From assembly GCA_038065455.1 (NCBI GenBank), contig JBBTQX010000004.1, forward strand, positions 71,157-130,941: a stretch of DNA of 59,785 nt. Direction: 5' to 3'. Each line of letters opens with the position of its first letter. Position 1 is the first letter of the stretch. This document shows positions 4,187 to 59,429 of the stretch, in pieces. A program made the position numbers and the translations under genes. This DNA comes from Patescibacteria group bacterium (lineage in GTDB: Bacteria > Patescibacteriota > Minisyncoccia > UBA6257 > GWB1-50-10). The notes beneath the pieces are model-generated. The model was given only the letters and a program-made list of their open reading frames with translations, did not search any database and was not told where the DNA came from.

Positions 4187-5554
4187 ATGAACACTAACCA
4201 ACTTTGGGAAGCGGTCTTGGGAGAAATCGAAATCCAGATTTCGCGTCCGAATTTCCTGACGTGGATGAAAAACAGCCAACTGCTCCAAAAAAATGACAAA
4301 GACGGCGTGGTGTTGGTGGGCCTTCCGAATAATTTTGCGAAGGAGTGGGTCAAAAGCCGATATCATAAAATAATTCTCGGCTCTCTTAGGAATTTGGATG
4401 GCTCGATAAAAAATGTGGATTACGCGGTCACGAGCCAGAACATCGCAAACGCGCCGTTAAAAAAATTCAGAGTTATGGCGGAGGCGGAGAAGCCCCAGTC
4501 GTCGCTCATTGAATTGAAAATAGATCCCAAAACAAACTTGAACCCAAAATATCTGTTCAATTCATTTATAGTCGGCTCATCGAACGAGTTGGCTTACGCG
4601 GCCGCGCAGGCGGTGGTGAAAGATGTGGGGAAAAAATACAATCCGCTTTTCGTTTATGGCGGGGTTGGTCTTGGAAAAACCCATCTTATCCAGGCGATGG
4701 GCAATGAGATCGCGAATATTTACAAAGGTTCGGTGAATGTCCTCTACACGTCGTCGGAAAAATTTATAAACGACGTGGTTTGGGCTATCCGGAACAAGAG
4801 AATGGATGACGTGAAAAAAAGGTATCGGGATGTGGATGTGCTTATTGTCGACGATATCCAATTTATTGCCGGGAAGCCGACGACCGAACAGGAATTTTTT
4901 TATACCTTCAATACGCTTCACGAAAACAACAAACAGATAGTGATTTCTTCCGATCGGCCCCCGTCGGCAATCCCCACGCTCGAAGAAAGGCTCCGTTCCC
5001 GCTTTGAAGGGGGGATGATTGTCGATGTTTCCTATCCGGACTATGAAATGCGGCTGGCAATTCTGAAAACCAAAGTTCTCCAAAACGGAATTTTCGTGGA
5101 TGAAAAGGTTTTGGAGCAAATCGCCGCCCGGGTCCAAAAAAACATCCGGGAGTTGGAGGGGGTTTTCAATAAGGTTGTTTTTTATGAGCAGGTCAAAAAC
5201 GAAAAAGTTAGCACTAAGAAATTGGACGAAATAATCAACGAGGCTGTTCAGGTTTTGCCGAAGAATATTACCGTGAGCGACGTGATAAAATCGGTAGCCG
5301 ACTTCTTCGAGGTTCCGACTGCAGATATCACCGACCGGAGCCGGAAGCAAGAGGTGGTAGAACCCCGCCAAATCGCGATGTATTTGATGCGCGACATGTT
5401 GAAGCTGTCTTACCCCCACATCGGCGAAAAGCTCGGCAAACGCGACCATACAACCGCTATTCACGCTTGCGAGAAGATAAAAAGAGAAATGAACCAAAAT
5501 CCGGGACTCAACCAAAAAATAATGCTGATAAAAGAAAGATTGTATAAGATGTAG
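4187..5554 (+). CDS. dnaA: chromosomal replication initiator DnaA
   Basis: 455 aa with Walker A GGVGLGKTHL and the C-terminal DnaA-box binding domain (RDHTTAIHACEKI). Confidence 0.97.
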   Translation: MNTNQLWEAVLGEIEIQISRPNFLTWMKNSQLLQKNDKDGVVLVGLPNNFAKEWVKSRYHKIILGSLRNLDGSIKNVDYAVTSQNIANAPLKKFRVMAEAEKPQSSLIELKIDPKTNLNPKYLFNSFIVGSSNELAYAAAQAVVKDVGKKYNPLFVYGGVGLGKTHLIQAMGNEIANIYKGSVNVLYTSSEKFINDVVWAIRNKRMDDVKKRYRDVDVLIVDDIQFIAGKPTTEQEFFYTFNTLHENNKQIVISSDRPPSAIPTLEERLRSRFEGGMIVDVSYPDYEMRLAILKTKVLQNGIFVDEKVLEQIAARVQKNIRELEGVFNKVVFYEQVKNEKVSTKKLDEIINEAVQVLPKNITVSDVIKSVADFFEVPTADITDRSRKQEVVEPRQIAMYLMRDMLKLSYPHIGEKLGKRDHTTAIHACEKIKREMNQNPGLNQKIMLIKERLYKM

Positions 5555-5739
5555 AAAGACTGTGGAAAAAAATCTGATAAAAAATAAATGAAAAAATTAA
5601 TTTCAAAAAATATCAATAAAAAGTCCCCGAGCGGGGATTGGGATATCCACACATTACTAAACGGCAAAAAACCGAATAACTGTTATTTTAATTAAGATAA
5701 ATCGAGTAAAAAATTATACACAACACTAATACCACTACT
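5555..5739. other. candidate oriC (dnaA-dnaN intergenic region)
   Basis: DnaA-box matches: TGTGGAAAA (5561-5569, reverse complement TTTTCCACA), ATATCCACA (5643-5651) and TTATACACA (5714-5722, fits TTATNCACA). An A/T-rich tract at 5570-5620 is a possible DNA unwinding element (DUE). One further TTATACACA box lies at 4100-4108 upstream of dnaA. Confidence 0.5.
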
Positions 5740-6846
5740 ATGAATTTAATAATATTAAGAACTAATCTACTGGACGGATTGAGCTCTGTTGAACGGGCGG
5801 TTGGGGAAAACACCAATCTGCCAATTTTAAAAAATATTCTAATAAAAACCAGGGATAATAAAATCGAATTTATTTCGACTAATTTGGAGCTGGCCGTCGA
5901 GGCATCTGTTTCCGGAAAGATAATCGAAAAAGGCGAAGTAACCGTCCCATTTTCCATATTTAATTCAACCATTAAAAATCTTAACACCGAAAGAATAATC
6001 CTCGAGGAAAAAGGCAAAAAACTGACTGTGAAAACCGATAATTACGAGGCTATTATGCAGATTCACAACCCGAAAGAATTTCCGATTATTCCGTCGATTT
6101 CCAACGAAAACCACAGTATAAAAATAAACACGAAAGATTTAAAAGAAGCGATAGGGAGCGTTATTATCGCGGCCCAATATTCCGACATTCGGCCGGAAAT
6201 AAGCGGAGTTTTTATGAGTTTTTCCGACGGAGCGCTGACCTTTGCCGCCACCGACGGCTTCCGGCTCTCGGAAAGAAAACTGAACCAAAAACAAACCAAA
6301 ACCGACATAGAAGATTTTTCCGTAATTATTCCGCTCAAAACCGCTACCGAGGTTATGAGAATGTTCAACAAAGACGAGGAGGTGGAAATATTCATCGACC
6401 CAAACCAAATAATGTTCCGCGCCCAAACCGAAAAAGTTATTTCAAGACTGATCGACGGAATATTCCCCGATTATCAATCCGTCATTCCGAAACAAATTCA
6501 AAACGAGGTATTGGCCGAAAGAAATGAATTAGTGAACGCCCTGAAACTTGCGAGCGGTTTTTCCGGAAGAGCGAACGATGTCACGATTAAAATCGGCGAC
6601 GGAAATAAATTTTTGGAAATATATTCTTCCGACAATGCTTTGGGTGAAAATTGCTACAAAGTACCGGTGAAAACGAAAGGAGAAAAATTTTCCCTGGTTT
6701 TCAACTGGCGCTACGTTTTGGATGGTTTGAAAATATATAAAAGTTCAGAAATCACGATTGGTGTGAATTCGTCAGACAAGCCGGTTGTGATAAAAAGTTC
6801 AAACGAACCCGGCCTTACTTATGTAGCGATGCCGATAAAAAGTTGA
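5740..6846 (+). CDS. dnaN: DNA polymerase III beta sliding clamp
   Basis: 368 aa with three-domain clamp length and sequence, directly after dnaA. Confidence 0.95.
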   Translation: MNLIILRTNLLDGLSSVERAVGENTNLPILKNILIKTRDNKIEFISTNLELAVEASVSGKIIEKGEVTVPFSIFNSTIKNLNTERIILEEKGKKLTVKTDNYEAIMQIHNPKEFPIIPSISNENHSIKINTKDLKEAIGSVIIAAQYSDIRPEISGVFMSFSDGALTFAATDGFRLSERKLNQKQTKTDIEDFSVIIPLKTATEVMRMFNKDEEVEIFIDPNQIMFRAQTEKVISRLIDGIFPDYQSVIPKQIQNEVLAERNELVNALKLASGFSGRANDVTIKIGDGNKFLEIYSSDNALGENCYKVPVKTKGEKFSLVFNWRYVLDGLKIYKSSEITIGVNSSDKPVVIKSSNEPGLTYVAMPIKS

Positions 6847-8962
6847 ATATACCCGCTTCCCAGTTCGCGAATTGGGAATCGTCGGCTGGGTTTTGTGGTG
6901 GTGGACCCAAAGGATTCTTTTTGTCCACATAATAGAGTATTGAGTGGATTTGTGGGGTTGGAATTCCGTTTATCGGAATAGATATTATATATTGTCCATT
7001 CAACATTGGTTTTGAAACCACTTCTATTGGGTTGGGACTATTAAAAGGTTCGCTTGAATAGTTTTTAATCGTCTCTCTAAGAAAAGCGCTCCAAATCGGA
7101 ACCGCCGCCAATATACTAGTTCCCTTTTTTTGCATTGGAGCGTTGTTATTGTTGCCGGCCCAAACCCCAACCGTAAGTGATGGGGTATATCCCATTGCCC
7201 AGGCATCGCGATAATCGTTTGTGGTACCGGTTTTTAGGGCCACATCGTAGCCTGGAAACACAGTGAGACCGAGGCTGTTTTGAAATAGGTTGGCTCGTAA
7301 CCCACTATCCGAAAGAATTTTATTTACCATTCGTGGGTATTGCTGATCAATCACTTTTTCCGCTTTATCATGATAACTTTCCAAAACATTACCCTTATTG
7401 TCCAACACCTCCAAAATAGAGGTTTGGTCGTGACGGACCCCATCCTGAGAAAGGGTAGAGTAAACATTTACCAGATCTATAAGTTTCACCTCACCGCCAC
7501 CCAAAACAAGAGATAGTCCGTAACGCCAAACATCGTTCAATGTTGTAATACCAAATTTATGAACGTTTGCAAGAAAATCTTTTATTCCAACTAAATACAA
7601 AGTTTTAACCGCCGAAATATTTATTGATTGAGCTAAAGATTGTTCCATTGAAACTGGTCCAAGAAAAGGATCGAAATCCTGGGGGTGGAAACACTCGTCA
7701 TCTTTCATTTCGTTGTAATCAGGAATAGGGGGGCATTTGGGATCGTTCGGAAGAAACTCGGTCGGCACATCGAAAAGAATCGTCTGGGGCGGATAACCCT
7801 TCTCAAAAGCAGTCATATAAGCAAAAGGCTTCAGGGCCGAGCCGGGTTGCCGCAGTCCCTGGACGGCCACATTAAAATTCCCGCCATTCGCTATGTCAAA
7901 GTAGTCTTTAGACCCCACCAGAGCCAGGATTTGGCCTGTTTTGGGGTCTTGGGCCACCAAACTGGCGTTCTTTCCGCCATAAAGCAATTCATTTCGGCTA
8001 GCGCCCTCTTCAACCACTTTTTCTCCAATCTCCTGCATCGGCCAATCTAAAGTTGTTATGACTTTAAGACCGCCATTCATCACTATATCTTCGCCATATT
8101 TATTCACCAAATATTCCTTAACCATAAGCGAGAAATGCGGAGCCTTAATGGAACCCAAAGAAGGCGGCGCGAATTTTATCTTTTCTTTTTTCGCTTCATC
8201 CCGCTGTTTCTCCGTGATTTTCCCGAGTTCGGCCATTCGGTTTAAAACACCGTTTTTTCTGGCCAAAACCTCGTCCAGATGACTCCCCCAAGGAGAGTAG
8301 TAGCTCGGCGCCTTAGTTAGCCCCGCCAAAAGCGCTGACTCGGCCAAGTCGATGTCATTGGCTGATTTTGAAAAAAATGTTTGGCTGGCGGCCTCCACTC
8401 CGTAGGCGTTGGAACCGTAGGGAATTTGATTGAGATAAAGATTTAATATCTCGTCTTTGGAATATCTGGATTCCATTTGGATTGCAAGCACCAACTCCTT
8501 CAATTTCCTGGTTATTGTTTTTTCGGACGACAGAAAAACGTTTTTGGCGAGTTGTTGGGTGATGGTCGAGCCTCCTTGGCTGAAACTCAAATTTTTTATA
8601 TCCACCCACAAGGCTCTCAATATTCCGCGCCAATCGAAAGCTGGCCGGTTGTAAAAATCGTCGTCCTCGGTCGCGATAGTCGCTTCTTTCAGGGTTTCCG
8701 GAATTTCTCCGAAAGGAATAATGGTCCTTTTTTCCTCCCCATGGATTTCATAAAGAACCACTTCGCCCGTCCGGTCGTAAAGTTTCGTGGATTGGCTGAC
8801 TTGGCGGGTTTCGAATTGGTCCGGCGATGGAAGGTCGCGGACGATTACAACCGCGTAAATAACGCCCACAGCGGCAAGGCTGACTGCCGCAATAGAGCTT
8901 AAGAGAAGCGCGGAAATCAAAAAACGCTTCCGCCGTATTTTTCCGGATTTTATTTTTTTCAT
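6815..8962 (-). CDS. penicillin-binding protein 1A (bifunctional glycosyltransferase/transpeptidase)
   Basis: 715 aa with an N-terminal TM anchor. GT51 motifs are present (ATEDDDFY, GGSTITQQLAKN), as is the transpeptidase SxxK (GSALKPF). Confidence 0.9.
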   Translation of the reverse strand: MKKIKSGKIRRKRFLISALLLSSIAAVSLAAVGVIYAVVIVRDLPSPDQFETRQVSQSTKLYDRTGEVVLYEIHGEEKRTIIPFGEIPETLKEATIATEDDDFYNRPAFDWRGILRALWVDIKNLSFSQGGSTITQQLAKNVFLSSEKTITRKLKELVLAIQMESRYSKDEILNLYLNQIPYGSNAYGVEAASQTFFSKSANDIDLAESALLAGLTKAPSYYSPWGSHLDEVLARKNGVLNRMAELGKITEKQRDEAKKEKIKFAPPSLGSIKAPHFSLMVKEYLVNKYGEDIVMNGGLKVITTLDWPMQEIGEKVVEEGASRNELLYGGKNASLVAQDPKTGQILALVGSKDYFDIANGGNFNVAVQGLRQPGSALKPFAYMTAFEKGYPPQTILFDVPTEFLPNDPKCPPIPDYNEMKDDECFHPQDFDPFLGPVSMEQSLAQSINISAVKTLYLVGIKDFLANVHKFGITTLNDVWRYGLSLVLGGGEVKLIDLVNVYSTLSQDGVRHDQTSILEVLDNKGNVLESYHDKAEKVIDQQYPRMVNKILSDSGLRANLFQNSLGLTVFPGYDVALKTGTTNDYRDAWAMGYTPSLTVGVWAGNNNNAPMQKKGTSILAAVPIWSAFLRETIKNYSSEPFNSPNPIEVVSKPMLNGQYIISIPINGIPTPQIHSILYYVDKKNPLGPPPQNPADDSQFANWEAGIFNFLSASLHK

Positions 8963-38534: not shown

Positions 38535-38778
38535 AAAATCCTCCTACTCATGAATTGGTTGATTTTAAAGCGTTTGGAAAATAAACTGCTTTTTAATTTA
38601 CCACTAAAGTCGAAAAAAGACAATTCTTCTCCCTCATCCCTCGACTATGCTCGGGATTCATCCGAAGCCACGGACTTTCGCTTTATCATCCCCCGGATGC
38701 GCGAAAGTTCCGTTCAATTCCCGTTCAACTACTAAAAACACAAATACCCGGCCTTTTATGGTTGGGTGTTTGTGTTTG

Positions 38779-39086
38779 TGGAGACGGCGGGAATTGAACC
38801 CGCGTACGGAAAGATTCGGCAAGCGTTTCTACAAGTTTAGTTCCGGTTGCCCGGAGCGGTTTTGCCTTCCTGTTTTAACGGAAGATACGGAAAGCGGATC
38901 TCTCCCGCGAACTCGCGATATGACACCGGAAGTTCCCTAGCGAGTGTCGGGGCCGATGCGGCATTACGCGAAAGCGAATGCCGGAGCTACCGTTTTATTG
39001 GCAGTTATCTTGGAAGCCGTTTTAGTGAGCGGCAGGCTCAGCTTGCTGCGTTTGCTTCATTCATCCCGTCGAAGCCGATCATCCCC
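38779..39086 (-). ncRNA. ssrA: tmRNA (SsrA)
   Basis: On the minus strand the 5' end reads GGGGATGATCGGCTTCGACGGG and the 3' end GCGGGTTCAATTCCCGCCGTCTCCA. The acceptor stem has G3-U. The tag reading frame at 39002-38964 gives ANKTVAPAFAFA*. It is adjacent to smpB. Confidence 0.85.
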
Positions 39087-39102
39087 ATATTCTGTTTTCA
39101 AT

Positions 39103-39546
39103 CTACTCTCGGACGGCGCGCTGGATTTCTCTATCCACCTCCTTTTTCCTGATTGCATCGCGCTTATCTGCCTTTTTGAGGGGCTTGCCCAATCCTAACT
39201 TCAGTTTGATTAAGCCGCGTTTAGTGTAGACCTCAAGCGGAAGCAAGGTCAAGCCTTTCTCATGGAGCTTGCCCGTCAGATACTCTATCTCCTTTTTGGT
39301 AATCAGAAGCCGCCGGGAGCGGTTCGGCTCGTATTCCTTCGGAGTATTCTTGGGCTGGTATGGCGGAATGTGCGCATTCAAAAGCCACGCCTCATTGTGG
39401 CGGATGACGGCGTAACTGCCCGCAATCTGCATATGGCCGCTTTTGACCGCTTTCACCTCGAAGCCTTTCAATTCTATGCCGGCCTCGATCTTTTCCTGGA
39501 TATCGTAGTCAAAACTCGCGCGTTTGTTGAATGCCAAAGATGACAT
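39103..39546 (-). CDS. smpB: SsrA-binding protein SmpB
   Basis: 147 aa SmpB family sequence next to the tmRNA. Confidence 0.95.
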   Translation of the reverse strand: MSSLAFNKRASFDYDIQEKIEAGIELKGFEVKAVKSGHMQIAGSYAVIRHNEAWLLNAHIPPYQPKNTPKEYEPNRSRRLLITKKEIEYLTGKLHEKGLTLLPLEVYTKRGLIKLKLGLGKPLKKADKRDAIRKKEVDREIQRAVRE

Positions 39547-39591: not shown

Positions 39592-41184
39592 ATGAGTATT
39601 CGCGATATCATCGCCTCCTATCTCGTTAAAGTCATTCCGAAGGGAACGGCGGTAGATCTGCGCGTACCCGATGAAAACCAAGACGCCCATTATGCGACGA
39701 GTGTCGCTTTTCGGCTTGGGAAAGAGCAGGATAAGAACCCCCGCGAGGCGGCGGAAGAAATAATACTAAAACTATTAAAAATCGCTCCGCCGGAGCTTTT
39801 CGATCGGGTGGAAGTAGCCGGCCCCGGTTTCATTAATTTTTGGCTTAGCCAAAAGACCCTGAATGCCGAGCTTGGCAAGATTTTAAAAGAAAATAAAAAG
39901 TATGGCACTTCCAATAATATAAAAGACAATATCCAACTGGAATTCATCTCCGCCAATCCCACGGGACCGCTCACGCTTGCGAACGGCCGGGGCGGATTTT
40001 TGGGCGATGTGCTCGGAAATATTTTGAAAGCCGCGGGTGCGAAGGTGGAGAAAGAATACTATGTGAACGATACCGGCAACCAAGTATTCACGTTCGGCAA
40101 ATCGCTCTTGGCCGCGCGGGGAATAATCAAAGATGAAGAAAATTTCTACAAGGGCGGATATGTGGCGGAATGGGCGAAAAAGAACGCGAAGTTCGTAACG
40201 AAAATGAAAAGCAAGCCGATGGAGCTGGGTGAGCGGGCGGCTAAAGACCTTTTGAAAAAAATTAAAGCCGATATCGGTAAAAAAGCGAAGATAAAATTCG
40301 ACCGTTATACATCCGAGAAAAAGATTCATCAGTTGAAATTGCCGGAGAAAATCCTTCAGATATTCGGAAAAGGCGGCTGGACTTACGAGCAGGATGGCGC
40401 TTTATGGCTAAAAACCACGCCTTTCGGCGACGACAAAGACAGGGTTCTTATCACAAGCAAAGACAACCTTCCAACTTACCTTTTGGCAGATGCCGGCCAT
40501 TATTTGGAGACCAAAAAGAGGGGATTCGATACGAAAATAAATATTTTGGGTCCCGATCACTACGGCTACGTGAAGAGGATCCAGGCCGTGGCGAAGATAC
40601 TGAAATTCAAAAAATCGGAGGTACTTATCACTCAGGCGATACGTCTGATGCGGGACGGGCAGGAGTTCAAGATGTCCAAACGGAAAGGGGAATTCGTCAC
40701 TTTTGAGGATTTGGTCACCGAAGTGGGAGCGGATGTGGCGCGCTTCTTTTTCCTAATGATAGCGCCGGAGACCCATATGGATTTTGATATGAATCTCGCG
40801 AAAGAACGTTCCAATAAAAACCCGGTTTTCTATCTCCAGTATGCTTACGTGCGGGCGAATAATGTTCTGCAAAAAGCAAAAAATTATAAGTCAAAAGTCA
40901 TAAGTCATAAGTTATTAAATACAGAGGCGGATGTGAAATTAATTCGCTCGCTCGCCCAGTTTCCGGATATCATCACCGATACAGCGAAAGATTATCAGGT
41001 TCACCACATCACCCGCTACGCGCTCGATCTCGCCCACGATTTCCATAACTTTTACGAGAAAGAACGAGTTTTGGGAGAACCGAAAGATATTGCTGCCGCC
41101 CGATATGATTTGATAAAAGCCGCCGCTAGTGTGTTCGAAAATCTTTTCGGTATTTTAGGCATCACCAAACCGAAGAAGATGTAG
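39592..41184 (+). CDS. argS: arginine--tRNA ligase
   Basis: 530 aa, class I ArgRS, with SANPTGPLTLANGRG and an MSKRKG (KMSKS-like) motif plus a DALR anticodon-binding C-terminus. Confidence 0.95.
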   Translation: MSIRDIIASYLVKVIPKGTAVDLRVPDENQDAHYATSVAFRLGKEQDKNPREAAEEIILKLLKIAPPELFDRVEVAGPGFINFWLSQKTLNAELGKILKENKKYGTSNNIKDNIQLEFISANPTGPLTLANGRGGFLGDVLGNILKAAGAKVEKEYYVNDTGNQVFTFGKSLLAARGIIKDEENFYKGGYVAEWAKKNAKFVTKMKSKPMELGERAAKDLLKKIKADIGKKAKIKFDRYTSEKKIHQLKLPEKILQIFGKGGWTYEQDGALWLKTTPFGDDKDRVLITSKDNLPTYLLADAGHYLETKKRGFDTKINILGPDHYGYVKRIQAVAKILKFKKSEVLITQAIRLMRDGQEFKMSKRKGEFVTFEDLVTEVGADVARFFFLMIAPETHMDFDMNLAKERSNKNPVFYLQYAYVRANNVLQKAKNYKSKVISHKLLNTEADVKLIRSLAQFPDIITDTAKDYQVHHITRYALDLAHDFHNFYEKERVLGEPKDIAAARYDLIKAAASVFENLFGILGITKPKKM

Positions 41185-41228
41185 TTTTTTTGCCAAAAAG
41201 CTCCATTTTCATTAGAATTATTAGGCTA

Positions 41229-44200
41229 ATGCTCAAGAAACTCGAAAAATTCTCCCTTCCGGAACTAGAAGAAAAGGTTCTGGAATTCTGGAAAACGAAC
41301 GATATTTTCGGAAAATCACTCGCCAAAAATGCGAAGAAGAAAAAATTCATCTTCTACGAGGGTCCGCCGACGGCGAACGGCCGGCCAGGCATCCATCATA
41401 TCCTTGCCCGTTCCTTCAAGGATATTATTCCGCGCTACAAAACGATGGCCGGATTTTCGGTGCCGCGCCGGGCCGGCTGGGATACGCACGGCTTGCCGGT
41501 GGAACTCGAAGTGGAAAAGAAGCTCGGCTTGAAATCCAAAAAAGAAATCGAGAAGTTCGGTATCGCGGAGTTCAATCAAAAATGCAAAGAATCCGTCTGG
41601 CAATACAAAGATGAGTGGGAAAAATTGACCGAGCGGATGGGTTTCTGGCTGGATCTCAAAAATCCTTATGTTACCTACGAAAATTCGTACATCGAATCGG
41701 TTTGGAGCATATTGAAGCGCGTTTGGGATAAAAAACTTCTGTATAAGGGCCATAAGGTGGTGCCCTGGTGCCCGCGTTGCGGCACGGGACTTTCCTCACA
41801 CGAGCTCGCTTTGGGATACAAAGAAACGACGGATACTTCGGTTTATGTGAGATTCAGATTAAAAATTAAACCAGAAGAAATTAAAGGAAGATTTAATAGT
41901 GAGGATATTTCAATATTGTCTTGGACTACTACACCTTGGACTCTGCCTGGAAATGTGGCTTTAGCCATTAATCCAAAATTGGAATATGTTGCTGTTTTTA
42001 CTAATCGATATGGTCCGCCAGCGCGATATTATATTTTGGAGAAAAATTCACTTGAAAGGCTTAAAAGTGAAATTCCAGATCTTGATTACACTCAAGTTCC
42101 ACAGAAAATAGAAAAGGAATTTCTTTTGAATAGATATTATGAGCCGCTTTTTGATGTTTCGCCGCTGGAATCAAAAGATTCATACAGAATATACCCAGCC
42201 GACTTCGTGACGACGACGGACGGTACGGGCGTAGTGCACACGGCCGTGATGTACGGCGAGGATGATTATAATCTCGGCAAAAAGATCGGCCTGCCTCAGC
42301 ATCATACCGTGGACGAGCAGGGGAAGTTCACGAAAGATGTGAAGGGTTTTGAGGGAATGCCCGTGAAGGCCAAAGAGACGGAAGATAAGATATTCGGACA
42401 CCTGAAGGATAAGGATTTTTTGCTTAAGACCGAACCCTACAAACACGAATATCCCTTCTGCTGGCGGTGTAATACTCCACTCATTTATTACGCCTGCGAC
42501 TCTTGGTTCATCGCGATGTCCAAACTCCGCCCGAAGCTTTTAGCGGCGAACAAAAAGATCAACTGGGTGCCCGGGAACATCAAAGACGGCCGTTTCGGCG
42601 AGTGGCTGAAGGAGGCGAAAGATTGGGCGATCTCCCGCGAACGCTATTGGGGCACGCCGCTTCCGATTTGGGTCTGCGACAAGTGCGGGCACGAAAAATT
42701 CATCGGCAGTATCGCGGAGTTGGAGAGTGGACGGAAAAAGAGCTCAAACCGCTATATCTTGGCGCGTCACGGCGAGGCGGAAAACAACGTGAAAAACATC
42801 ATTGACCACGTCGCCGAAAAATCCGTCTCCAATTTAACGCTCAAGGGACGTTCCCAAATAGAGAAGCTGGCGAAAAAGCTCTCAAGAGAGAAGATAGACG
42901 TCGTTTTTGCCTCGGATTTTCCGCGCACCAGGCAAACGGCCGAAATTTTAGCCTTGGCCTCGGGAATAAAGAAGGTCAATTTAGATAAGAGATTGAGGGA
43001 AGTCAATATGGGATTTTTGAACGGCCGCCAGGCGTATGAATATCACAGGCTTTTCCCGAATGATATGAAAAAATTCACAAGGGCTCCGGAGGGCGGCGAA
43101 ACCCTGAACGAACTCCGAAAACGCCTTTATGAATTCATAGAGGAGAAAGAAATGGAATTTTCCGGGAAGACGATCCTGGTCGTAAGCCACGAATATCCGA
43201 TATGGATCTTCGCGAGTGTCCTGGAGGGGTGGGGAAATCGGGAAGCAGTGGAGGAACATCACCGCCGCGGGGGAGAGTTCATAAGCAACAAGGGAGAAGT
43301 GCAGGAGTATCGTTTCCGTAATTTACCGAGGAATGAGAACGGCGAGATGGATGTCCACCGGCCTTATCTTGATGCCATCCAGTTACCTTGCGAGAAATGT
43401 GACGATAAGATGGAGCGCGTGAGGGAAGTAATAGATGTCTGGTTTGATTCTGGCGCCATGCCCTTCGCCCAGGCCCATTACCCCCTCAATAAAAAGATAG
43501 AATATCCGGCTGATTATATCTCCGAAGCAATGGACCAAACCCGGGGTTGGTTCTATACCCTGCTTGCCATAGGGGTTCTAATGGGCAAAGACAGCCCCTA
43601 CAAGAACGTTGTCTGTCTGGGGCTCATAATGGATAAAAATGGCCAGAAGATGTCCAAATCCAAGGGGAATATCGTAGACCCTTGGGAGGCCATGAGGAAG
43701 CACGGTGTGGACGCCATCCGCTGGTACTTCTACACGGTCAATCCGCCGGGCGAGCCGAAAAAATTCGACGAGTTCGAGATTACGAAAACTTCCCGCCAGC
43801 TTTTTTCGCTTCTCTATAATTCATTTCTGTTTTTTGAAACATATAGGGCTAAAAATTCGAAATCCAATCCGCCGGCCGGCGGACTAAATCCGAAATCATT
43901 CAGCGTGCTGGACCGTTGGATACTGAGCCGGTTGCACGAGACAATCGGCCTCGCGACCGAAAATTTGGACAAGTTCAATATCGGGGACGCGGGTCGGACA
44001 ATTGAAGATTTCGTCGGCGATCTTTCGCGCTGGTATATCAGGCGTTCCCGGCGCAGGTTTCAGAAACCTGAATCGTCAATCGAAGGGCAAAATGACCATG
44101 AGAATGCTTCGAATATTCTGGGCTACGCGCTTCTCGAGACAAGTAAACTTATCGCGCCTTTCGCGCCGTTCTTTGCCGAAGCGCTGTATAAATCTTTAAA

Positions 44201-44765
44201 TGCCGCGCTCTCGGTTCATTTGGAAGATTGGCCGAAGGCGGAAAATAAATATATCGATAAGAAACTTTCCTCGGCGATGGACGAAACGCGCAAGTTCGCG
44301 AGCGCGGTTCTGGCCAAACGGGCGGAAGCCGGCATAAAAGTAAGACAGCCCCTCGCAAAGCTTAAAATCCGAAATCCGAAATCCGAAATTTTGAACAACA
44401 GAGATTTAACAGAGATTTTGAAAGACGAAATAAACGTGAAAGATATAGTTCTTGATGCGGGCATCAAAGAAGATTTCGAATTGGATACGAATATCACGCA
44501 TGAACTCAAAGAGGAGGGGATTTTGCGGGAGCTCACGCGCGCGATTCAGGGCTTCCGGCAGGACGCGAAATTGAAGCCGCAGGATATTATCGGGCTTTTT
44601 CTGGACGGCCCGGAAGAATTAAAGATAATTGTTTCGAAATACGGAGAAACCCTTAAAAAGGACGTAAAAGCCGAGAGCATCGAATTGAAGCGTTCGTCCA
44701 AATTCGACGCGGAACTCGAAACAAAAGTGGATGAAATGCCGATTTGGATAGGAATAAAAAAATAA
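41229..44765 (+). CDS. ileS: isoleucine--tRNA ligase with an inserted histidine-phosphatase domain
   Basis: HIGH region (PGIHHILAR), CP1 editing domain (TTPWTLPGN), KMSKS, and zinc motifs CPRCG / CDKCG / CEKC. The ORF opens at 41190, but MLKKLEKFSLPELEE at 41229 matches IleRS N-termini. Confidence 0.95.
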   Translation: MLKKLEKFSLPELEEKVLEFWKTNDIFGKSLAKNAKKKKFIFYEGPPTANGRPGIHHILARSFKDIIPRYKTMAGFSVPRRAGWDTHGLPVELEVEKKLGLKSKKEIEKFGIAEFNQKCKESVWQYKDEWEKLTERMGFWLDLKNPYVTYENSYIESVWSILKRVWDKKLLYKGHKVVPWCPRCGTGLSSHELALGYKETTDTSVYVRFRLKIKPEEIKGRFNSEDISILSWTTTPWTLPGNVALAINPKLEYVAVFTNRYGPPARYYILEKNSLERLKSEIPDLDYTQVPQKIEKEFLLNRYYEPLFDVSPLESKDSYRIYPADFVTTTDGTGVVHTAVMYGEDDYNLGKKIGLPQHHTVDEQGKFTKDVKGFEGMPVKAKETEDKIFGHLKDKDFLLKTEPYKHEYPFCWRCNTPLIYYACDSWFIAMSKLRPKLLAANKKINWVPGNIKDGRFGEWLKEAKDWAISRERYWGTPLPIWVCDKCGHEKFIGSIAELESGRKKSSNRYILARHGEAENNVKNIIDHVAEKSVSNLTLKGRSQIEKLAKKLSREKIDVVFASDFPRTRQTAEILALASGIKKVNLDKRLREVNMGFLNGRQAYEYHRLFPNDMKKFTRAPEGGETLNELRKRLYEFIEEKEMEFSGKTILVVSHEYPIWIFASVLEGWGNREAVEEHHRRGGEFISNKGEVQEYRFRNLPRNENGEMDVHRPYLDAIQLPCEKCDDKMERVREVIDVWFDSGAMPFAQAHYPLNKKIEYPADYISEAMDQTRGWFYTLLAIGVLMGKDSPYKNVVCLGLIMDKNGQKMSKSKGNIVDPWEAMRKHGVDAIRWYFYTVNPPGEPKKFDEFEITKTSRQLFSLLYNSFLFFETYRAKNSKSNPPAGGLNPKSFSVLDRWILSRLHETIGLATENLDKFNIGDAGRTIEDFVGDLSRWYIRRSRRRFQKPESSIEGQNDHENASNILGYALLETSKLIAPFAPFFAEALYKSLNAALSVHLEDWPKAENKYIDKKLSSAMDETRKFASAVLAKRAEAGIKVRQPLAKLKIRNPKSEILNNRDLTEILKDEINVKDIVLDAGIKEDFELDTNITHELKEEGILRELTRAIQGFRQDAKLKPQDIIGLFLDGPEELKIIVSKYGETLKKDVKAESIELKRSSKFDAELETKVDEMPIWIGIKK
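42732..43343 (+). other. histidine phosphatase (PGM/cofactor-dependent mutase superfamily) domain inserted in IleRS
   Basis: About 204 aa lie between ..CDKCGHEKFIGSIAELESG and DVHRPYLD... The segment contains RHGEAENN (RHG at 42765-42773), DFPRTRQTAEIL and VVSHEYPI (His at 43188-43190). Confidence 0.8.
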
Positions 44766-44769
44766 AAAT

Positions 44770-45534
44770 ATGCCTCCTAAAAAATTCGAAATATTCAAAA
44801 CAGAACCAAATCATGAAGAAGAGCCGGCTAAAGTAGCGCAACAACGGATTCTTAAAATTATAAATGCCCAAATTATTGAGGCTCAAGTATCGAAGATTTC
44901 CCAAGGTCTCCATAATGAGCTTCATCGAGAGAAGAGAATGAATATTCTTGGAGAAATTTCCATGTATGAGGATGCTCGCGAAGATGTTTATTTAAGTTTC
45001 GGCATTCCGGACGATGAGGAACATTGTTATCTGATGCCGGGAAAGGAAGGGATTCAGCGCGCATACAGGGCTTTTGTCGTGTTTATTGACAGAAAAAAAA
45101 CCGATCCTAAATCAAAACTTCATGAAGCCTTTTACGGAGAAGGGCGCACGTCTCATAATCATTTGCTTCAAGCGGTTATTGATAAGGCAAATGAATATGG
45201 AATAAAAGATGCCAGTCTTGAATCATATATAGCCGAAACGGAAAAGAAGAGTTCTTCTGATTTCACATTTGCGGATCTTCCAAAAGATCCGGAGGCGACC
45301 CAGGGGCCTCGCTGGCTGTTCTTTAAGGGATTTTTGATTGCCAATGAAGATGAGATAAATCACCTCCCTTTGTTCGAACGCGAGAAGATAGAGGATTTAT
45401 TTGCGACTAGAAATAAGATGGAGGAGTATATTTCCGATGAATCGGGGGAGATCCCGACTGAAACACTTCGCTGGTTTCTTACCGGCTCGAATGTGCCATC
45501 CTCGCATCATCTTTCGGAAAATAACCCGACTTAA
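44770..45534 (+). CDS. hypothetical protein
   Basis: 254 aa, AT-richer than its flanks. I recognised no domain. Confidence 0.55.
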   Translation: MPPKKFEIFKTEPNHEEEPAKVAQQRILKIINAQIIEAQVSKISQGLHNELHREKRMNILGEISMYEDAREDVYLSFGIPDDEEHCYLMPGKEGIQRAYRAFVVFIDRKKTDPKSKLHEAFYGEGRTSHNHLLQAVIDKANEYGIKDASLESYIAETEKKSSSDFTFADLPKDPEATQGPRWLFFKGFLIANEDEINHLPLFEREKIEDLFATRNKMEEYISDESGEIPTETLRWFLTGSNVPSSHHLSENNPT

Positions 45535-45538
45535 AAAA

Positions 45539-46534
45539 TCAAAGGAGTCCGATTCTCTTTTTCACCTCCAAAAGTTTTTTTGAGGCCGCTACACCGGCTT
45601 TCTTGTTTCCTGCCAAAGTTATCTTACCTATAAGGCTCGTCTTTTTCGTTAACTCTCCCTTTCTTTTCTGGAAAGGCGCGAGAGTCTTTATGGCCGCTTC
45701 CGCCAAATCGCGCTTGAATTGGCCGTATCCTTTTCCGCGATACCTCTTTTCGATTGAGGCGCCGGTTTCATTCGTGAAAGCGGAATAAAGAAGGACGAGA
45801 TTTCCGATGCCTTCTTTGCCTTCCACATCGGCACTCACCTCCTTCCCTGAATCCGTAACCGCACCCATGATTTTTTTGCGGATGATGTCCGGTGAATCAT
45901 CGAGGAAAAGACAGCCGGCTGGCCGGGATTTGGACATCTTCTTTTTAGGATCGTCCAAACTCATCACTCTCGGATTGTCTGTGAGAATAGGCATAGGTTC
46001 GATGAAGGTCTTCCCGAATTTGTGGTTGAATTTCCGAACGAGCGTGCGGGCGAATTCCAGATGCTGAAGCTGGTCATCGCCCACCGGAACGAAATTAGCG
46101 CCATAAAGGATAATGTCCGCGGCCATCAGGACGGGATAGTCGAAAAGGCCGAGATTCACGTTTTCCGGAGAATGTTCCGATTTATCTTTAAATTGTGTCA
46201 TTCTTTGGAGTTCTCCTATTGAGGTCAAGGTATTCAAAATCCAACCCAATTCAGTGTGGGCCGGTATGGCGGACTGGACGAAGATGACGGATTTTTTCGG
46301 ATCCAGGCCGGCGGCAATATAATCGACGAGCAATTCCATTATCTGTTTCAGCTTTTCTTTAGGATTGTTCCGCCCACTGGCGGATTCCGTAAGGGAGTGC
46401 AAATCCGCCACGAAGAAGAAGCATTGGTACTTGCCGGAGTTCTGGAGCGCCACGAAGTTCTGGAGGGCTCCCAGGTAATTCCCGATATGCAGTTTTCCCG
46501 TCGGCTGAATGCCGGACACAAGGATTGGTTTCAT
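45539..46534 (-). CDS. trpS: tryptophan--tRNA ligase
   Basis: MKPILVSGIQPTGKLHIGNYLG (HIGH motif) and KMSKS. The ORF-track start at 46570 reads through the repeat arm. Confidence 0.93.
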   Translation of the reverse strand: MKPILVSGIQPTGKLHIGNYLGALQNFVALQNSGKYQCFFFVADLHSLTESASGRNNPKEKLKQIMELLVDYIAAGLDPKKSVIFVQSAIPAHTELGWILNTLTSIGELQRMTQFKDKSEHSPENVNLGLFDYPVLMAADIILYGANFVPVGDDQLQHLEFARTLVRKFNHKFGKTFIEPMPILTDNPRVMSLDDPKKKMSKSRPAGCLFLDDSPDIIRKKIMGAVTDSGKEVSADVEGKEGIGNLVLLYSAFTNETGASIEKRYRGKGYGQFKRDLAEAAIKTLAPFQKRKGELTKKTSLIGKITLAGNKKAGVAASKKLLEVKKRIGLL

Positions 46535-46655
46535 CCCGTTAGAAATAGTGCGCATGCGCATAAGAAGCAAAACATGCGTTATTTTTACTGACCTTTATTG
46601 CAGATTGATTATTCATGGTTATTTATATTGATTTGCGCACGCGATTTCTAACGGG
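46535..46655 (-). repeat. inverted-repeat leader element, copy D (abuts the trpS ATG)
   Basis: Coding strand: CCCGTTAGAAATCGCGTGCGCA ... TGCGCACTATTTCTAACGGG followed directly by ATG. Length 121 nt. Confidence 0.85.
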
Positions 46656-57872: not shown

Positions 57873-59429
57873 ATGACCAAGAAACCGGTAGTTTTGGCGA
57901 TTTTGGACGGGTGGGGGATCGGTAAGCTGGATGAATCGAATCCGATCTACCGCGCTGAACCTCCAACCATGAATTTCATCCGCGCCAACTTTCCGGCCGG
58001 AGCTCTTCAATCATCCGGCATTGCTATCGGCCTTCCGTGGGAGGAGGAGGGAAACAGCGAAGTCGGCCACCTTACAATCGGGGCGGGCAAAGTCCTTTAT
58101 CAGCATTTTCCCAGAATATCGCTCGCAATCAAGAACGGCAGTTTTTTTAAAAACAGCGTTCTTCTCACAGCTATGGAGCACGCGAAAAAAAATAATTCCA
58201 CTCTCCATTTGATGGGGCTTCTGACCGATGCCAATGTCCATGCATCTCTCGAGCATTTGGAAGCGCTTATAAAAATGGCGCGGGAGGAAAAGTGCCCGAA
58301 TATCTCCCTTCATCTTTTTTCGGATGGCCGTGACACCGACCCAAGTTCTGTTTTGAAGATTTTAGCCGGGCTTTCGGATGACCTTAAATTCGATGCCCGC
58401 TCTATTCTCGCGACCCTGACCGGAAGGTATTATGCGATGGACAGGGACAAGCATTGGGACCGGACGGAAAAAACCTATCAAACTTTGACGGGAGCGAATC
58501 CGGTAAAAATCGGTTTGGAAGAAGCGGTTAAAAAAGCCTATAGTCTCAATTTAAATGATGAATATATTGAGCCGTCGATAGTCGCTAATGAACCGCGCTT
58601 CATTGGGGAAAACGATGCCGTTATTTGTTTCAATTTTCGCGAGGATCGGATGCGCCAACTTTCCGAAACTTTCATCGATCCGAATTTCGGCGTTTTTCCT
58701 GTGAAGAAATTTACCAATCTTTTTTTCGCGACTTTCACGAACTATGATGCCCGATTCGCCGTTCCGATCGCTTTTCCGGAAGAAGCGGCGGAAAATCCGC
58801 TAGGCAAGGTGCTTTCGGATAACGGCAAGCGCCAGTTGCGGATTGCCGAGACCGAAAAATATGCTCACGTCACTTATTTTTTTAATGGTCTCAAGGAAAA
58901 ACCTTTTCCGGATGAATTCCGAATTCTCGTGCCATCGGAGAATGCCGTCCATTACGAACAGTATCCGCAAATGATGGCCGGGGCCGTGACTGATCGGGTG
59001 ATCGCAGCGCTCGCAGAAGGGACCTACGATTTTATTCTGGTGAACTATGCCAATCCCGATATGGTGGCGCACACGGGCAATTATGAGGCGACGCTGAAGG
59101 CGATTTCGATCGTCGATCAGGGAATCAAAAGAATAATGGAAAGTGTTTTGGACCAGGACGGCGTGCTTCTCATAACTTCCGATCACGGGAACGCCGAGGT
59201 GCTGCTCGATCTGAAGACGGGCGAGCCGGAAACGAAGCACAATCCGAACCCAGTTCCGTTTTATCTGGTGGGGAAGCGTTTCAGAAAACGTTCTCCCGTG
59301 GATTCGCTCGCGCCCTTGCCGGTCATCGGAATTTTGTCCGATATCGCTCCGACGATTTTGGAATTGATGAAAATACCCCAGCCGCTCGAAATGACCGGGC
59401 AGAGCCTACTCCCGCAATTATTGAGTTAA
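57873..59429 (+). CDS. gpmI: 2,3-bisphosphoglycerate-independent phosphoglycerate mutase
   Basis: 518 aa with GNSEVGHLTIGAG and TSDHGN motifs. Confidence 0.93.
   Translation: MTKKPVVLAILDGWGIGKLDESNPIYRAEPPTMNFIRANFPAGALQSSGIAIGLPWEEEGNSEVGHLTIGAGKVLYQHFPRISLAIKNGSFFKNSVLLTAMEHAKKNNSTLHLMGLLTDANVHASLEHLEALIKMAREEKCPNISLHLFSDGRDTDPSSVLKILAGLSDDLKFDARSILATLTGRYYAMDRDKHWDRTEKTYQTLTGANPVKIGLEEAVKKAYSLNLNDEYIEPSIVANEPRFIGENDAVICFNFREDRMRQLSETFIDPNFGVFPVKKFTNLFFATFTNYDARFAVPIAFPEEAAENPLGKVLSDNGKRQLRIAETEKYAHVTYFFNGLKEKPFPDEFRILVPSENAVHYEQYPQMMAGAVTDRVIAALAEGTYDFILVNYANPDMVAHTGNYEATLKAISIVDQGIKRIMESVLDQDGVLLITSDHGNAEVLLDLKTGEPETKHNPNPVPFYLVGKRFRKRSPVDSLAPLPVIGILSDIAPTILELMKIPQPLEMTGQSLLPQLLS

Follow-up and report, generated by a model that had tools for sequence, protein, structure and literature searches.

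Aminoacyl-tRNA synthetases rank with the most conserved enzymes known, and the modules known to have been added to their catalytic core serve editing or tRNA binding. The closest described relatives of the enzyme considered here are type-2 isoleucyl-tRNA synthetases (IleRS2), represented by structures from Thermus thermophilus (1ILE) and Priestia megaterium (8C8U/8C8V), in which a Rossmann fold and the CP core are combined with a CP1 editing domain, CP2, a CP3 subdomain that bears zinc in the T. thermophilus enzyme, a KMSKS loop, an anticodon-binding domain, type-2 C-terminal domains and a G/AXHH motif. The name CP3 and the zinc-binding motif of T. thermophilus CP3 follow a study of a Candida IleRS (PMC7191050); residues of CP3 flank one side of the synthetic site (PMC12077802). 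The passages on the G/AXHH motif in Brkic et al. (PMC10485003) describe this swapped form as catalytically competent in type-2 IleRS and as conferring mupirocin hyper-resistance. We analysed a stretch of 59,785 nucleotides (hereafter the window, meaning this whole stretch) from the assembly of a Patescibacteria group bacterium (GCA_038065455.1, contig JBBTQX010000004.1), in which the gene ileS (41190..44765, forward strand) encodes a type-2 IleRS as one continuous open reading frame (ORF) of 1191 residues. The window enzyme shares all of the parts listed above and matches the IleRS2 structures (sequence E 9e-240, Foldseek E 1e-84), but a whole enzyme of about 205 residues, apparently a histidine phosphatase, stands where those proteins have a loop of about eight residues at the tip of CP3. 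None of the solved IleRS structures has this insert.

The NCBIfam model ileS_w_GNAT (NF040702) is a precedent for an IleRS bearing an unrelated enzyme domain, and the mycobacterial RNase H/acid phosphatase (PRK07238, Rv2228c type) is a precedent for the fusion of an RNA-related enzyme with a His_Phos domain; in both, the fusion is terminal, and neither is known to be nested in CP3. The insert matched the phosphatase half of PRK07238 (E 3e-22), at 79 bits against a cutoff of 326, and the window IleRS scored 318.7 bits against a cutoff of 1999 for ileS_w_GNAT. No model of an IleRS with a phosphatase appeared among the NCBIfam matches shown. In open-access papers and preprints we found no description of a phosphatase within IleRS, and an earlier mention elsewhere is possible; the word "phosphatase" is absent from a preprint on IleRS evolution (bioRxiv 2026.02.03.703510), and the passages of PMC10485003 that concern Patescibacteria, Candidate or phyla make no mention of the insert. 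The novelty lies in the combination of IleRS with a complete second enzyme nested within CP3, an architecture that can be computed from public data.

Alignment to 1ILE placed window residues 15-514 against 1ILE residues 2-479 and window residues 720-1049 against 1ILE residues 488-821, which defines the replacement of the short T. thermophilus loop (residue numbers throughout are those of the 1191-residue ORF, counted from 41190). The insert enters the zinc knuckle of CP3 between its two Cys pairs, namely C496 and C499 (CDKC 496-499, 42675..42686, +), which align to CQAC of T. thermophilus IleRS, and C734 and C737 (CEKC 734-737, 43389..43400, +), which were aligned with insert-less relatives; both pairs are invariant. 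The nested domain spans residues 515-718 (42732..43343, +), and its Pfam match to His_Phos_1, the branch 1 family, covers residues 523-686 (nucleotides 42756-43247). In the context of the whole protein, PF00300 matched over profile positions 2-166 of 194 with an E-value of 1.4e-34 and 119.9 bits (cutoff 21.7), and the 204-residue insert scanned by itself gave an E-value of 4.4e-36 in Pfam.

The predicted active site of the insert is complete. The RHG motif (42765..42773, +) comprises R526, the nucleophile H527 and G528, with R526 and H527 invariant in an alignment of 52 sequences; R579, the second phosphate-binding Arg, lies within SDFPRTRQTAEI (42924..42926, +), E604, the predicted general acid/base, in LREVNMG (42999..43001, +), and H667, the second catalytic His, in VVSHEYPIW (43188..43190, +). 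From long proteins we took about 246 nested domains for alignment to the profile. Among the ungapped domains, R526 was kept in 242 out of 242 and H527 in 241 out of 242; R579 was kept in 245 out of 246 nested domains, H667 in all 246 and N533 in 213, and position 604 was Glu in 231 and Asp in 15. The mean pairwise identity of these approximately 246 domains was only about 34%. In the 52-sequence set, insert length ranged from 197 to 209 residues, and identity to the window sequence was 45% for the insert versus 63% for the IleRS core. Because identity is lower in the insert and the catalytic residues are nonetheless kept, we read the insert as evolving faster than the core, yet with its catalytic machinery under purifying selection.

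A model of the insert alone, built with AlphaFold2, reached a predicted local distance difference test score (pLDDT) of 95.3 and a predicted template modelling score (pTM) of 0.92; as modelled, the insert is an entire enzyme of about 190 residues that folds autonomously. A preliminary description of this locus, made from the letters and a list of ORFs, had proposed a histidine-phosphatase domain of about 204 residues at 42732-43343. By the 1ILE alignment its boundaries were right to within one or two residues, the Pfam searches bear out the identity it gave, the hallmarks that it named (RHG, LREVNMG and the His of VVSHEYPI) are present, with the catalytic residues conserved clade-wide, and the autonomous domain that it left to structure modelling is what the model of the insert predicts. 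A common CP-region expansion lacking catalytic residues was considered and rejected, given the His_Phos_1 match and the catalytic residues that are kept. Taken together, the sequence evidence supports an intact, apparently active histidine phosphatase within an otherwise intact IleRS.

All of the 50 best-listed of 301 Foldseek matches (E ≤ 0.001) belong to the histidine phosphatase superfamily. The closest solved structures are those of the Hydrogenobacter phosphoserine phosphatase PspA (4IJ5/4IJ6; sequence E 5e-15, Foldseek E 1e-13, template modelling (TM) score 0.69). By both sequence and fold, the other near relatives are Bacillus PhoE/YhfR (1H2E, 1EBB), the mycobacterial glucosyl-3-phosphoglycerate phosphatase GpgP (4PZA), a histidine-family phosphatase of the riboflavin pathway (9MMH), TIGAR and CobC; the nearest solved relatives are thus small-molecule phosphomonoesterases of about 200 residues. 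With the branch 1 phosphatases PspA (4IJ5), PhoE/YhfR (1H2E/1EBB), GpgP (Rv2419c, 4PZA) and CobC (6NRU/6E4B), the insert shares TM scores of about 0.65-0.7 (E 1e-13 to 1e-11), a length of about 190-210 residues and the same catalytic residues. Unlike them, it is nested instead of free, is only 22-28% identical to them and scores under the equivalog cutoffs. The best NCBIfam family was dPGM_arch (NF038349), a model for cofactor-dependent phosphoglycerate mutase (dPGM), at E 1e-24 and 82-87 bits against a cutoff of 225. The pgm_1 model (TIGR01258) gave 21 bits against 81.7, CobC alpha-ribazole phosphatase (TIGR03162) 65-70 bits against 162.9, and the phosphohistidine phosphatase SixA (TIGR00249) 24 bits against 74.5 (E 2.8e-5), and PspA (NF045917) gave 67-72 bits against 350 even though it is the nearest solved structure. 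Because no NCBIfam equivalog cutoff was reached, we place the insert in the superfamily as a member of an unnamed subfamily, and homology gives no substrate. The PADLOC defence library gave no match, and the sole match in PHROGs was a family of unknown function, phrog_12933.

The synthetase on either side of the insert has the features of a working type-2 enzyme. Pfam reported tRNA-synt_1 in two stretches around the insert (E 1.3e-124), and the ileS equivalog TIGR00392 of NCBIfam scored 907.1 bits against a cutoff of 621.4, again in two stretches flanking the insert. We assigned the enzyme to type 2 because its best solved relatives are the type-2 structures 1ILE and 8C8U-W, ahead of the IleRS1 structures 1FFY and 8C9E, and because its C terminus matches DUF5915. 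The models of MupA and MupB, the IleRS of acquired mupirocin resistance (NF000257 and NF000258), gave 749 and 798 bits against a cutoff of 1900, a resemblance no greater than is expected for a type-2 IleRS. The AlphaFold2 model of the whole protein had a mean pLDDT of 86.8 and a pTM of 0.77, with blocks of the insert at 90-96. The CP1 editing domain (about residues 208-422, 41811..42455, +) matches isolated IleRS editing-domain structures (1WK8, 1UE0), and its editing site is intact (WTTTPWTLP at 245-253 and GTGVVH...D359), with T246-T248, H350 and D359 invariant in the 52 sequences. The DVWFDSG motif occupies residues 749-755. The anticodon-binding and type-2 C-terminal domains span 43911..44762 (+), with Pfam matches to Anticodon_1 (residues 908-1056, E 1.2e-29) and DUF5915 (residues 1098-1190, E 1.4e-15).

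The class I signature has the swapped form GIHH at residues 67-70 (41388..41399, +), with G67, H69 and H70 invariant in the 52-sequence alignment, and the KMSKS loop lies at residues 820-824 (43647..43661, +), with K820, M821, S822 and K823 invariant and S824 kept in at least 90% of the sequences. We counted the class I motifs (HXGH and KMSKS) as present, the GIHH variant replacing HXGH. The statement in the preliminary description that the flanking IleRS motifs are intact thus stood for CP1 and KMSKS, which are conserved, as is the zinc knuckle, and needed correction for "HIGH", which reads GIHH. Swapped motifs also occur in the operon-type relatives described below (GIHH in L091, L094 and L095, GAHH in L092, GVHH in L002), and one such relative, L090, has a canonical HYGH signature. 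The true start of ileS is probably the ATG at 41229, which encodes M14, because the consensus of homologues begins at M14, residues 1-11 have pLDDT values below 50 and the single promoter-like hexamer pair found in a promoter scan overlaps 41190-41218, just 5' of this ATG.

Several lines of evidence speak for the authenticity of the architecture. GC content is smooth across the insert, with no break. An independent long-read assembly (ENA ERZ1286166 contig_2896, 121 kb, here L001) aligned to the window at 99.27% identity over 20.8 kb with 64 gap openings and spans both insert junctions, the ileS gene call being fragmented there. Within ileS, L001 differs from the window by 11 gap columns and 13 mismatches; because the gaps fall at homopolymers or GC-rich motifs, we attribute the differences to the error pattern of long reads. 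Both PF00133 and PF00300 were present in 120 out of 120 best full-length database matches (54-73% identity), whose source names were Jorgensen-, Wolfe- and Brennerbacteria, Paceibacterota and Minisyncoccia. Residues 485-748, used as the query in an exhaustive search, returned 141 clusters (50% identity) at E ≤ 1e-30, most of them proteins of about 1150-1200 residues matched at approximately 450-740. We also surveyed GTDB species genomes with the single pattern VSHEY[PS]IW, taken from a 6-sequence alignment, a design biased to close relatives; the N-terminal part, insert and C-terminal part lay in one ORF in 72 of the 79 loci, and the other seven were truncated at contig ends or carried frameshifts. 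Among the insert-bearing genomes is a complete one, CP011209.1 (Wolfebacteria). To judge from these comparisons, the insert is not private to the window genome but has been conserved throughout a large clade of Parcubacteria, with hundreds of related species sharing the layout.

An assembly chimera, or an annotation artefact that joined a phosphatase gene to ileS, can therefore be given a negligible probability; nothing speaks for it except a general distrust of metagenome assemblies. The independent assembly covers both junctions, the same in-frame architecture recurs in 72 species genomes including CP011209.1, GC content does not break, and the four flanking zinc-knuckle cysteines are invariant. 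A pseudogene was rejected on the same grounds, namely the independent assembly and clade-wide conservation. These results agree with the preliminary description, which had argued for a continuous frame and a functional insertion and had named read mapping breaking at the junctions, and a survey of IleRS for the insert, as ways of checking it.

Proteins with the insert, such as KKS82181.1 / UniRef100_A0A0G1EGL4, have stood in public databases since 2015 under the plain name "isoleucine--tRNA ligase". Many insert-bearing IleRS (P0016, P0029, P0045 and others) are named "class I tRNA ligase family protein" by the NCBI pipeline, and one free-standing phosphatase of 202 residues (P0400) is labelled "isoleucyl-tRNA synthetase" by JGI; both naming artefacts appear to be caused by the nesting. 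Per-gene annotation hides the phosphatase inside "IleRS", and this, like the generic NCBI names, can distort metabolic reconstructions of genomes of the candidate phyla radiation.

Some relatives carry more than one added domain. Five IleRS homologues (P0282, P0228, P0223, P0231 and P0271) have two to four His_Phos_1 domains, with gene calls as given. In P0271 and P0231 (1419 residues), the second copy sits in another loop, which corresponds to residues 886-904 of the window enzyme and separates the KMSKS/SC-fold region from the anticodon-binding domain. In the IleRS homologue P0181 (1066 residues), three additions are combined: the His_Phos insert, a GNAT acetyltransferase domain at the C terminus and, within CP1, a Y1 transposase domain of the IS200-like type. 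The IleRS of these lineages seems unusually permissive to added domains.

The phosphatase also occurs as a gene of its own. When the insert alone served as query, a handful of free-standing proteins of 192-198 residues were found at 40-45% identity. One free-standing protein of 194 residues (P0002) aligned to the insert from 2-176 to 3-177 (43% identity, E 9e-49); because it aligns end to end, the insert corresponds to a whole protein and not a fragment. With P0002 as query, we retrieved at least 604 proteins at E ≤ 1e-10 from Patescibacteria, including "Pacebacteria", whose source names were "PhoE" or "histidine phosphatase family protein" and nothing further. The nested domain belongs to the same subfamily as these free-standing proteins (P0002, P0287, P0301, P0392 and others) and shares their neighbourhood; unlike it, they are separate polypeptides whose partner IleRS has a short CP3 loop.

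The free gene lay upstream of an insert-less IleRS gene (923-1006 residues) in 9 out of 9 contexts examined, either abutting it or separated from it by inserted genes that span no more than about 2.5 kb. In 8 out of 9 it abutted or overlapped the end of argS. Among the nine, L009 has a convergent ileS in two ORFs, and in L010 ileS is cut by the contig end. In relatives, the wider block reads rplT-rpmI-infC / smpB / argS-hisPhos-ileS-recO; the taxonomy of these operon-type genomes comes from sparse source names only. The operon-type IleRS proteins are orthologues of the window enzyme: their cores are 40-52% identical to it, against 59% for that of the insert-bearing P0103, and they have a loop of 8-10 residues at the insertion site; the empty site of L091 reads ...CEKCDKQICVGSLNELKKLQ-VTSYKLQDLHRPSIDKATFKCEKC.... 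Mean identity was 34.5% between nested and free domains, 33.8% among nested domains and 26% to outgroup His_Phos proteins. No free copy of the phosphatase was found within 5 kb of the nested loci (0/72), and argS lay upstream within about 3.4 kb in only 16 out of 72 nested loci. In a neighbour-joining tree of 158 domains, the free-standing forms grouped cleanly in a single clade (66/70); the outgroups were placed amid nested sequences, so that the tree could not be rooted.

Several observations on these operons stand apart. In L092, an RHH/ParE-type toxin-antitoxin pair and an HD_3 phosphohydrolase lie between hisPhos and ileS (5652-6819), and in L093 the same interval (5668-8055) holds bAvd and a reverse transcriptase, resembling a diversity-generating retroelement. 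The ileS of L009 (2682-5609, -) consists of two ORFs (412 and 554 residues) with the break after CP1 (Pfam profile positions 185/187), which may reflect either an IleRS split in two or a frameshift error. In L007 and L008 (5724-9408), a His_Phos_1 protein with 35% identity to the insert (P0010) overlaps the end of gatC within gatC-hisPhos-gatA-gatB, which is a second association of such a phosphatase with tRNA-charging machinery. Several free forms from three lineages have a net charge of +10 to +13 per 100 residues, like SmpB and IF3; the values in the other two lineages are +2 (L092) and -8 (L009) per 100 residues.

On balance, we favour a reading in which the window protein is a bifunctional housekeeping IleRS2 with a PhoE/PspA-like phosphatase in the CP3 tip loop, probably acting as an autonomous module on a small phosphorylated metabolite or nucleotide. 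The free gene and the nested domain would then be two states of one function, because nested-free identity equals nested-nested identity, the neighbourhood is the same, the loop is empty where the gene is free and no free copy lies near the nested loci. The most likely history would be that a neighbouring phosphatase gene relocated into a permissive CP3 loop in an ancestor of a large Parcubacteria clade; this direction is inferred, as the neighbour-joining tree offers no reliable root. By the mechanism of the superfamily, H527 would attack a phosphomonoester to form a phospho-histidine intermediate, R526, R579, H667 and N533 would hold the phosphoryl group, and E604 would protonate the leaving group and then activate water, as general acid and then base. 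Comparison with relatives makes a small phosphorylated metabolite or nucleotide the most likely substrate. Nesting would mainly secure co-expression and tethering with IleRS and would not create a shared active site. We describe the module as autonomous because the same protein works untethered in relatives, because some IleRS carry two to four copies and because a second copy can occupy another loop; given these multiple copies and the second site, an exact geometry relative to the synthetic site is hard to uphold.

Some of our observations weigh against this reading. The family is linked to argS and ileS, nested or adjacent, in a translation block (tmRNA, smpB, infC, rpmI, rplT), and such linkage could reflect real coupling to aminoacylation that the term "autonomous module" understates. 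The short linkers and tight insert length would suit a fixed geometry beside the synthetic site, and the tree does not separate a gene moving into the loop from a domain moving out to a gene. Because recO and smpB are equally conserved neighbours, adjacency is weak evidence either way. A coupled accessory activity is the main alternative, and we consider it tentative and distinctly less probable. It holds that the phosphatase serves a substrate of the aminoacylation machinery, with nesting in CP3 delivering it and giving IleRS a third catalytic site; candidate substrates would be tRNA 3' ends blocked by pyrophosphate or by a 2'/3'-phosphate, and nucleotides that form at class Ia synthetases as by-products or inhibitors. 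In its broader form, for which our expectation is similarly low, the phosphatase would be a functional partner of class Ia synthetases in Patescibacteria that clears a phosphorylated species blocking or poisoning aminoacylation; a tRNA whose CCA end bears a phosphate would be one example, and a phosphorylated nucleotide or adenylate-like by-product another. The family is tied to synthetase genes in both ways, nested in ileS or between argS and ileS, in a block that is otherwise translation-related (trpS as well as the genes just named), a distant member (35% identity) sits in gatC-hisPhos-gatA-gatB, and the basic charge of several free forms matches that of SmpB and IF3. Residues of CP3, moreover, line one side of the synthetic site (PMC12077802), and the linkers are short and the insert length constrained. 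However, the close relatives in sequence and fold are all small-molecule phosphatases, none of them acting on RNA or protein, the basic charge is inconsistent between lineages (+2 in L092, -8 in L009), and a copy number of one to four with a second insertion site speaks against precise geometry. The equal conservation of recO as a neighbour and the absence of a PADLOC defence-system match also count against coupling, and a repair function tied to one of twenty synthetases is hard to rationalise.

Three further explanations for the insert seem far less probable still. The preliminary description had speculated on phosphoglycerate-mutase-like chemistry moonlighting in a reduced genome, and a hidden glycolytic enzyme would be a short dPGM that supplies the phosphoglycerate mutase (PGM) step "missing" in some Parcubacteria. 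The rank of dPGM_arch as the best NCBIfam family (E 1e-24) fits this idea, a domain inside a gene named IleRS would escape per-gene annotation, and PGM has been reported absent from several shallow Parcubacteria clades, possibly through divergence (Jaffe et al. 2020, PMC7304191). The window itself, however, holds a canonical cofactor-independent PGM (iPGM) about 13 kb downstream (57873-59429, +; iPGM_N E 1.8e-66, TIGR01307 577 bits against 331), so the genome need not rely on the IleRS insert for this step. The insert also falls under the dPGM_arch and TIGR01258 cutoffs, and its nearest structures are phosphatases, not mutases. In dPGMs, Arg/Tyr typically follows the catalytic Glu, and LREVNMG lacks it after E604. 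Glycolytic PGM activity is thus probably not what the insert provides; the speculation is weakened, and we give the hidden-enzyme account little credence. The His_Phos superfamily includes protein phosphatases, the insertion adjoins the catalytic core and the insert has a weak SixA match (E 2.8e-5), so one can picture action in the manner of SixA, PGAM5 or Sts on IleRS or other proteins, for example reversing HipA-like phosphorylation near KMSKS. That picture looks highly doubtful in view of the SixA score of 24 bits against 74.5, the lack of any SixA, PGAM5 or Sts type among the 50 best-listed Foldseek matches, all of them small-molecule phosphatases or mutases, the lack of a linked kinase in the neighbourhoods examined and the occurrence of free-standing forms without tethering. 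The fold could finally be kept as a spacer, tRNA-binding surface or ligand sensor that modulates IleRS without catalysis. Such pseudo-enzyme use of the His_Phos fold has a precedent in TFIIIC tau55, and the insert evolves faster than the core (45% versus 63% identity). Against this stand the nucleophile His and phosphate-binding residues, which are near-invariant in approximately 246 domains at 34% identity, duplicated copies included; because of this, catalysis, or at least obligatory phospho-ligand binding, is the expected role, and a non-catalytic module is very unlikely.

The locus is a case of natural domain nesting in an essential enzyme, and, if the favoured history is right, its "before" state is extant as a separate gene and an empty loop, so that its evolution and fitness are testable. 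Throughout a major bacterial radiation, the only IleRS of housekeeping type has a complete, catalytically intact enzyme of an unrelated class in its CP3, and the finding flags a conserved Patescibacteria phosphatase that tracks argS and ileS. Should the activity prove coupled to tRNA charging, synthetases would gain an accessory function of a new type, and should it clear an aminoacylation-blocking phosphate, a third catalytic site would stand beside synthesis and editing.

In the window, ileS follows argS (39592..41184, +), which encodes ArgRS; the same order, with Pfam calls, is found in L001. The gap between argS and ileS is 5-44 nucleotides and contains no gene, and L001 likewise has no gene between them. 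Immediately upstream of argS-ileS lie the transfer-messenger RNA (tmRNA) and smpB (38776-39546, -), the tmRNA itself (38776-39086, -) having the tag ANKTVAPAFAFA, and the window and L001 share the block of tmRNA, smpB, argS and ileS. A TrpRS-like gene just downstream of ileS (45539-46570, -) was recognised by reading its translation by eye, and fragments of PF00579 lie at the same place in L001. The neighbourhood in the window is almost entirely translation-related; in relatives it reads rplT-rpmI-infC / smpB / argS...ileS. No leader RNA was found around argS or ileS in Rfam. A 254-residue ORF (44770-45534, +) starts 5 nucleotides after the ileS stop and had no Pfam, PADLOC or PHROG match; RecO, encoded after ileS in relatives, was considered for it and rejected, since the two show no similarity. 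Farther upstream, dnaA and dnaN adjoin each other (4187-6846, +), and because dnaA stands beside dnaN, the window probably includes the region of the chromosomal replication origin.

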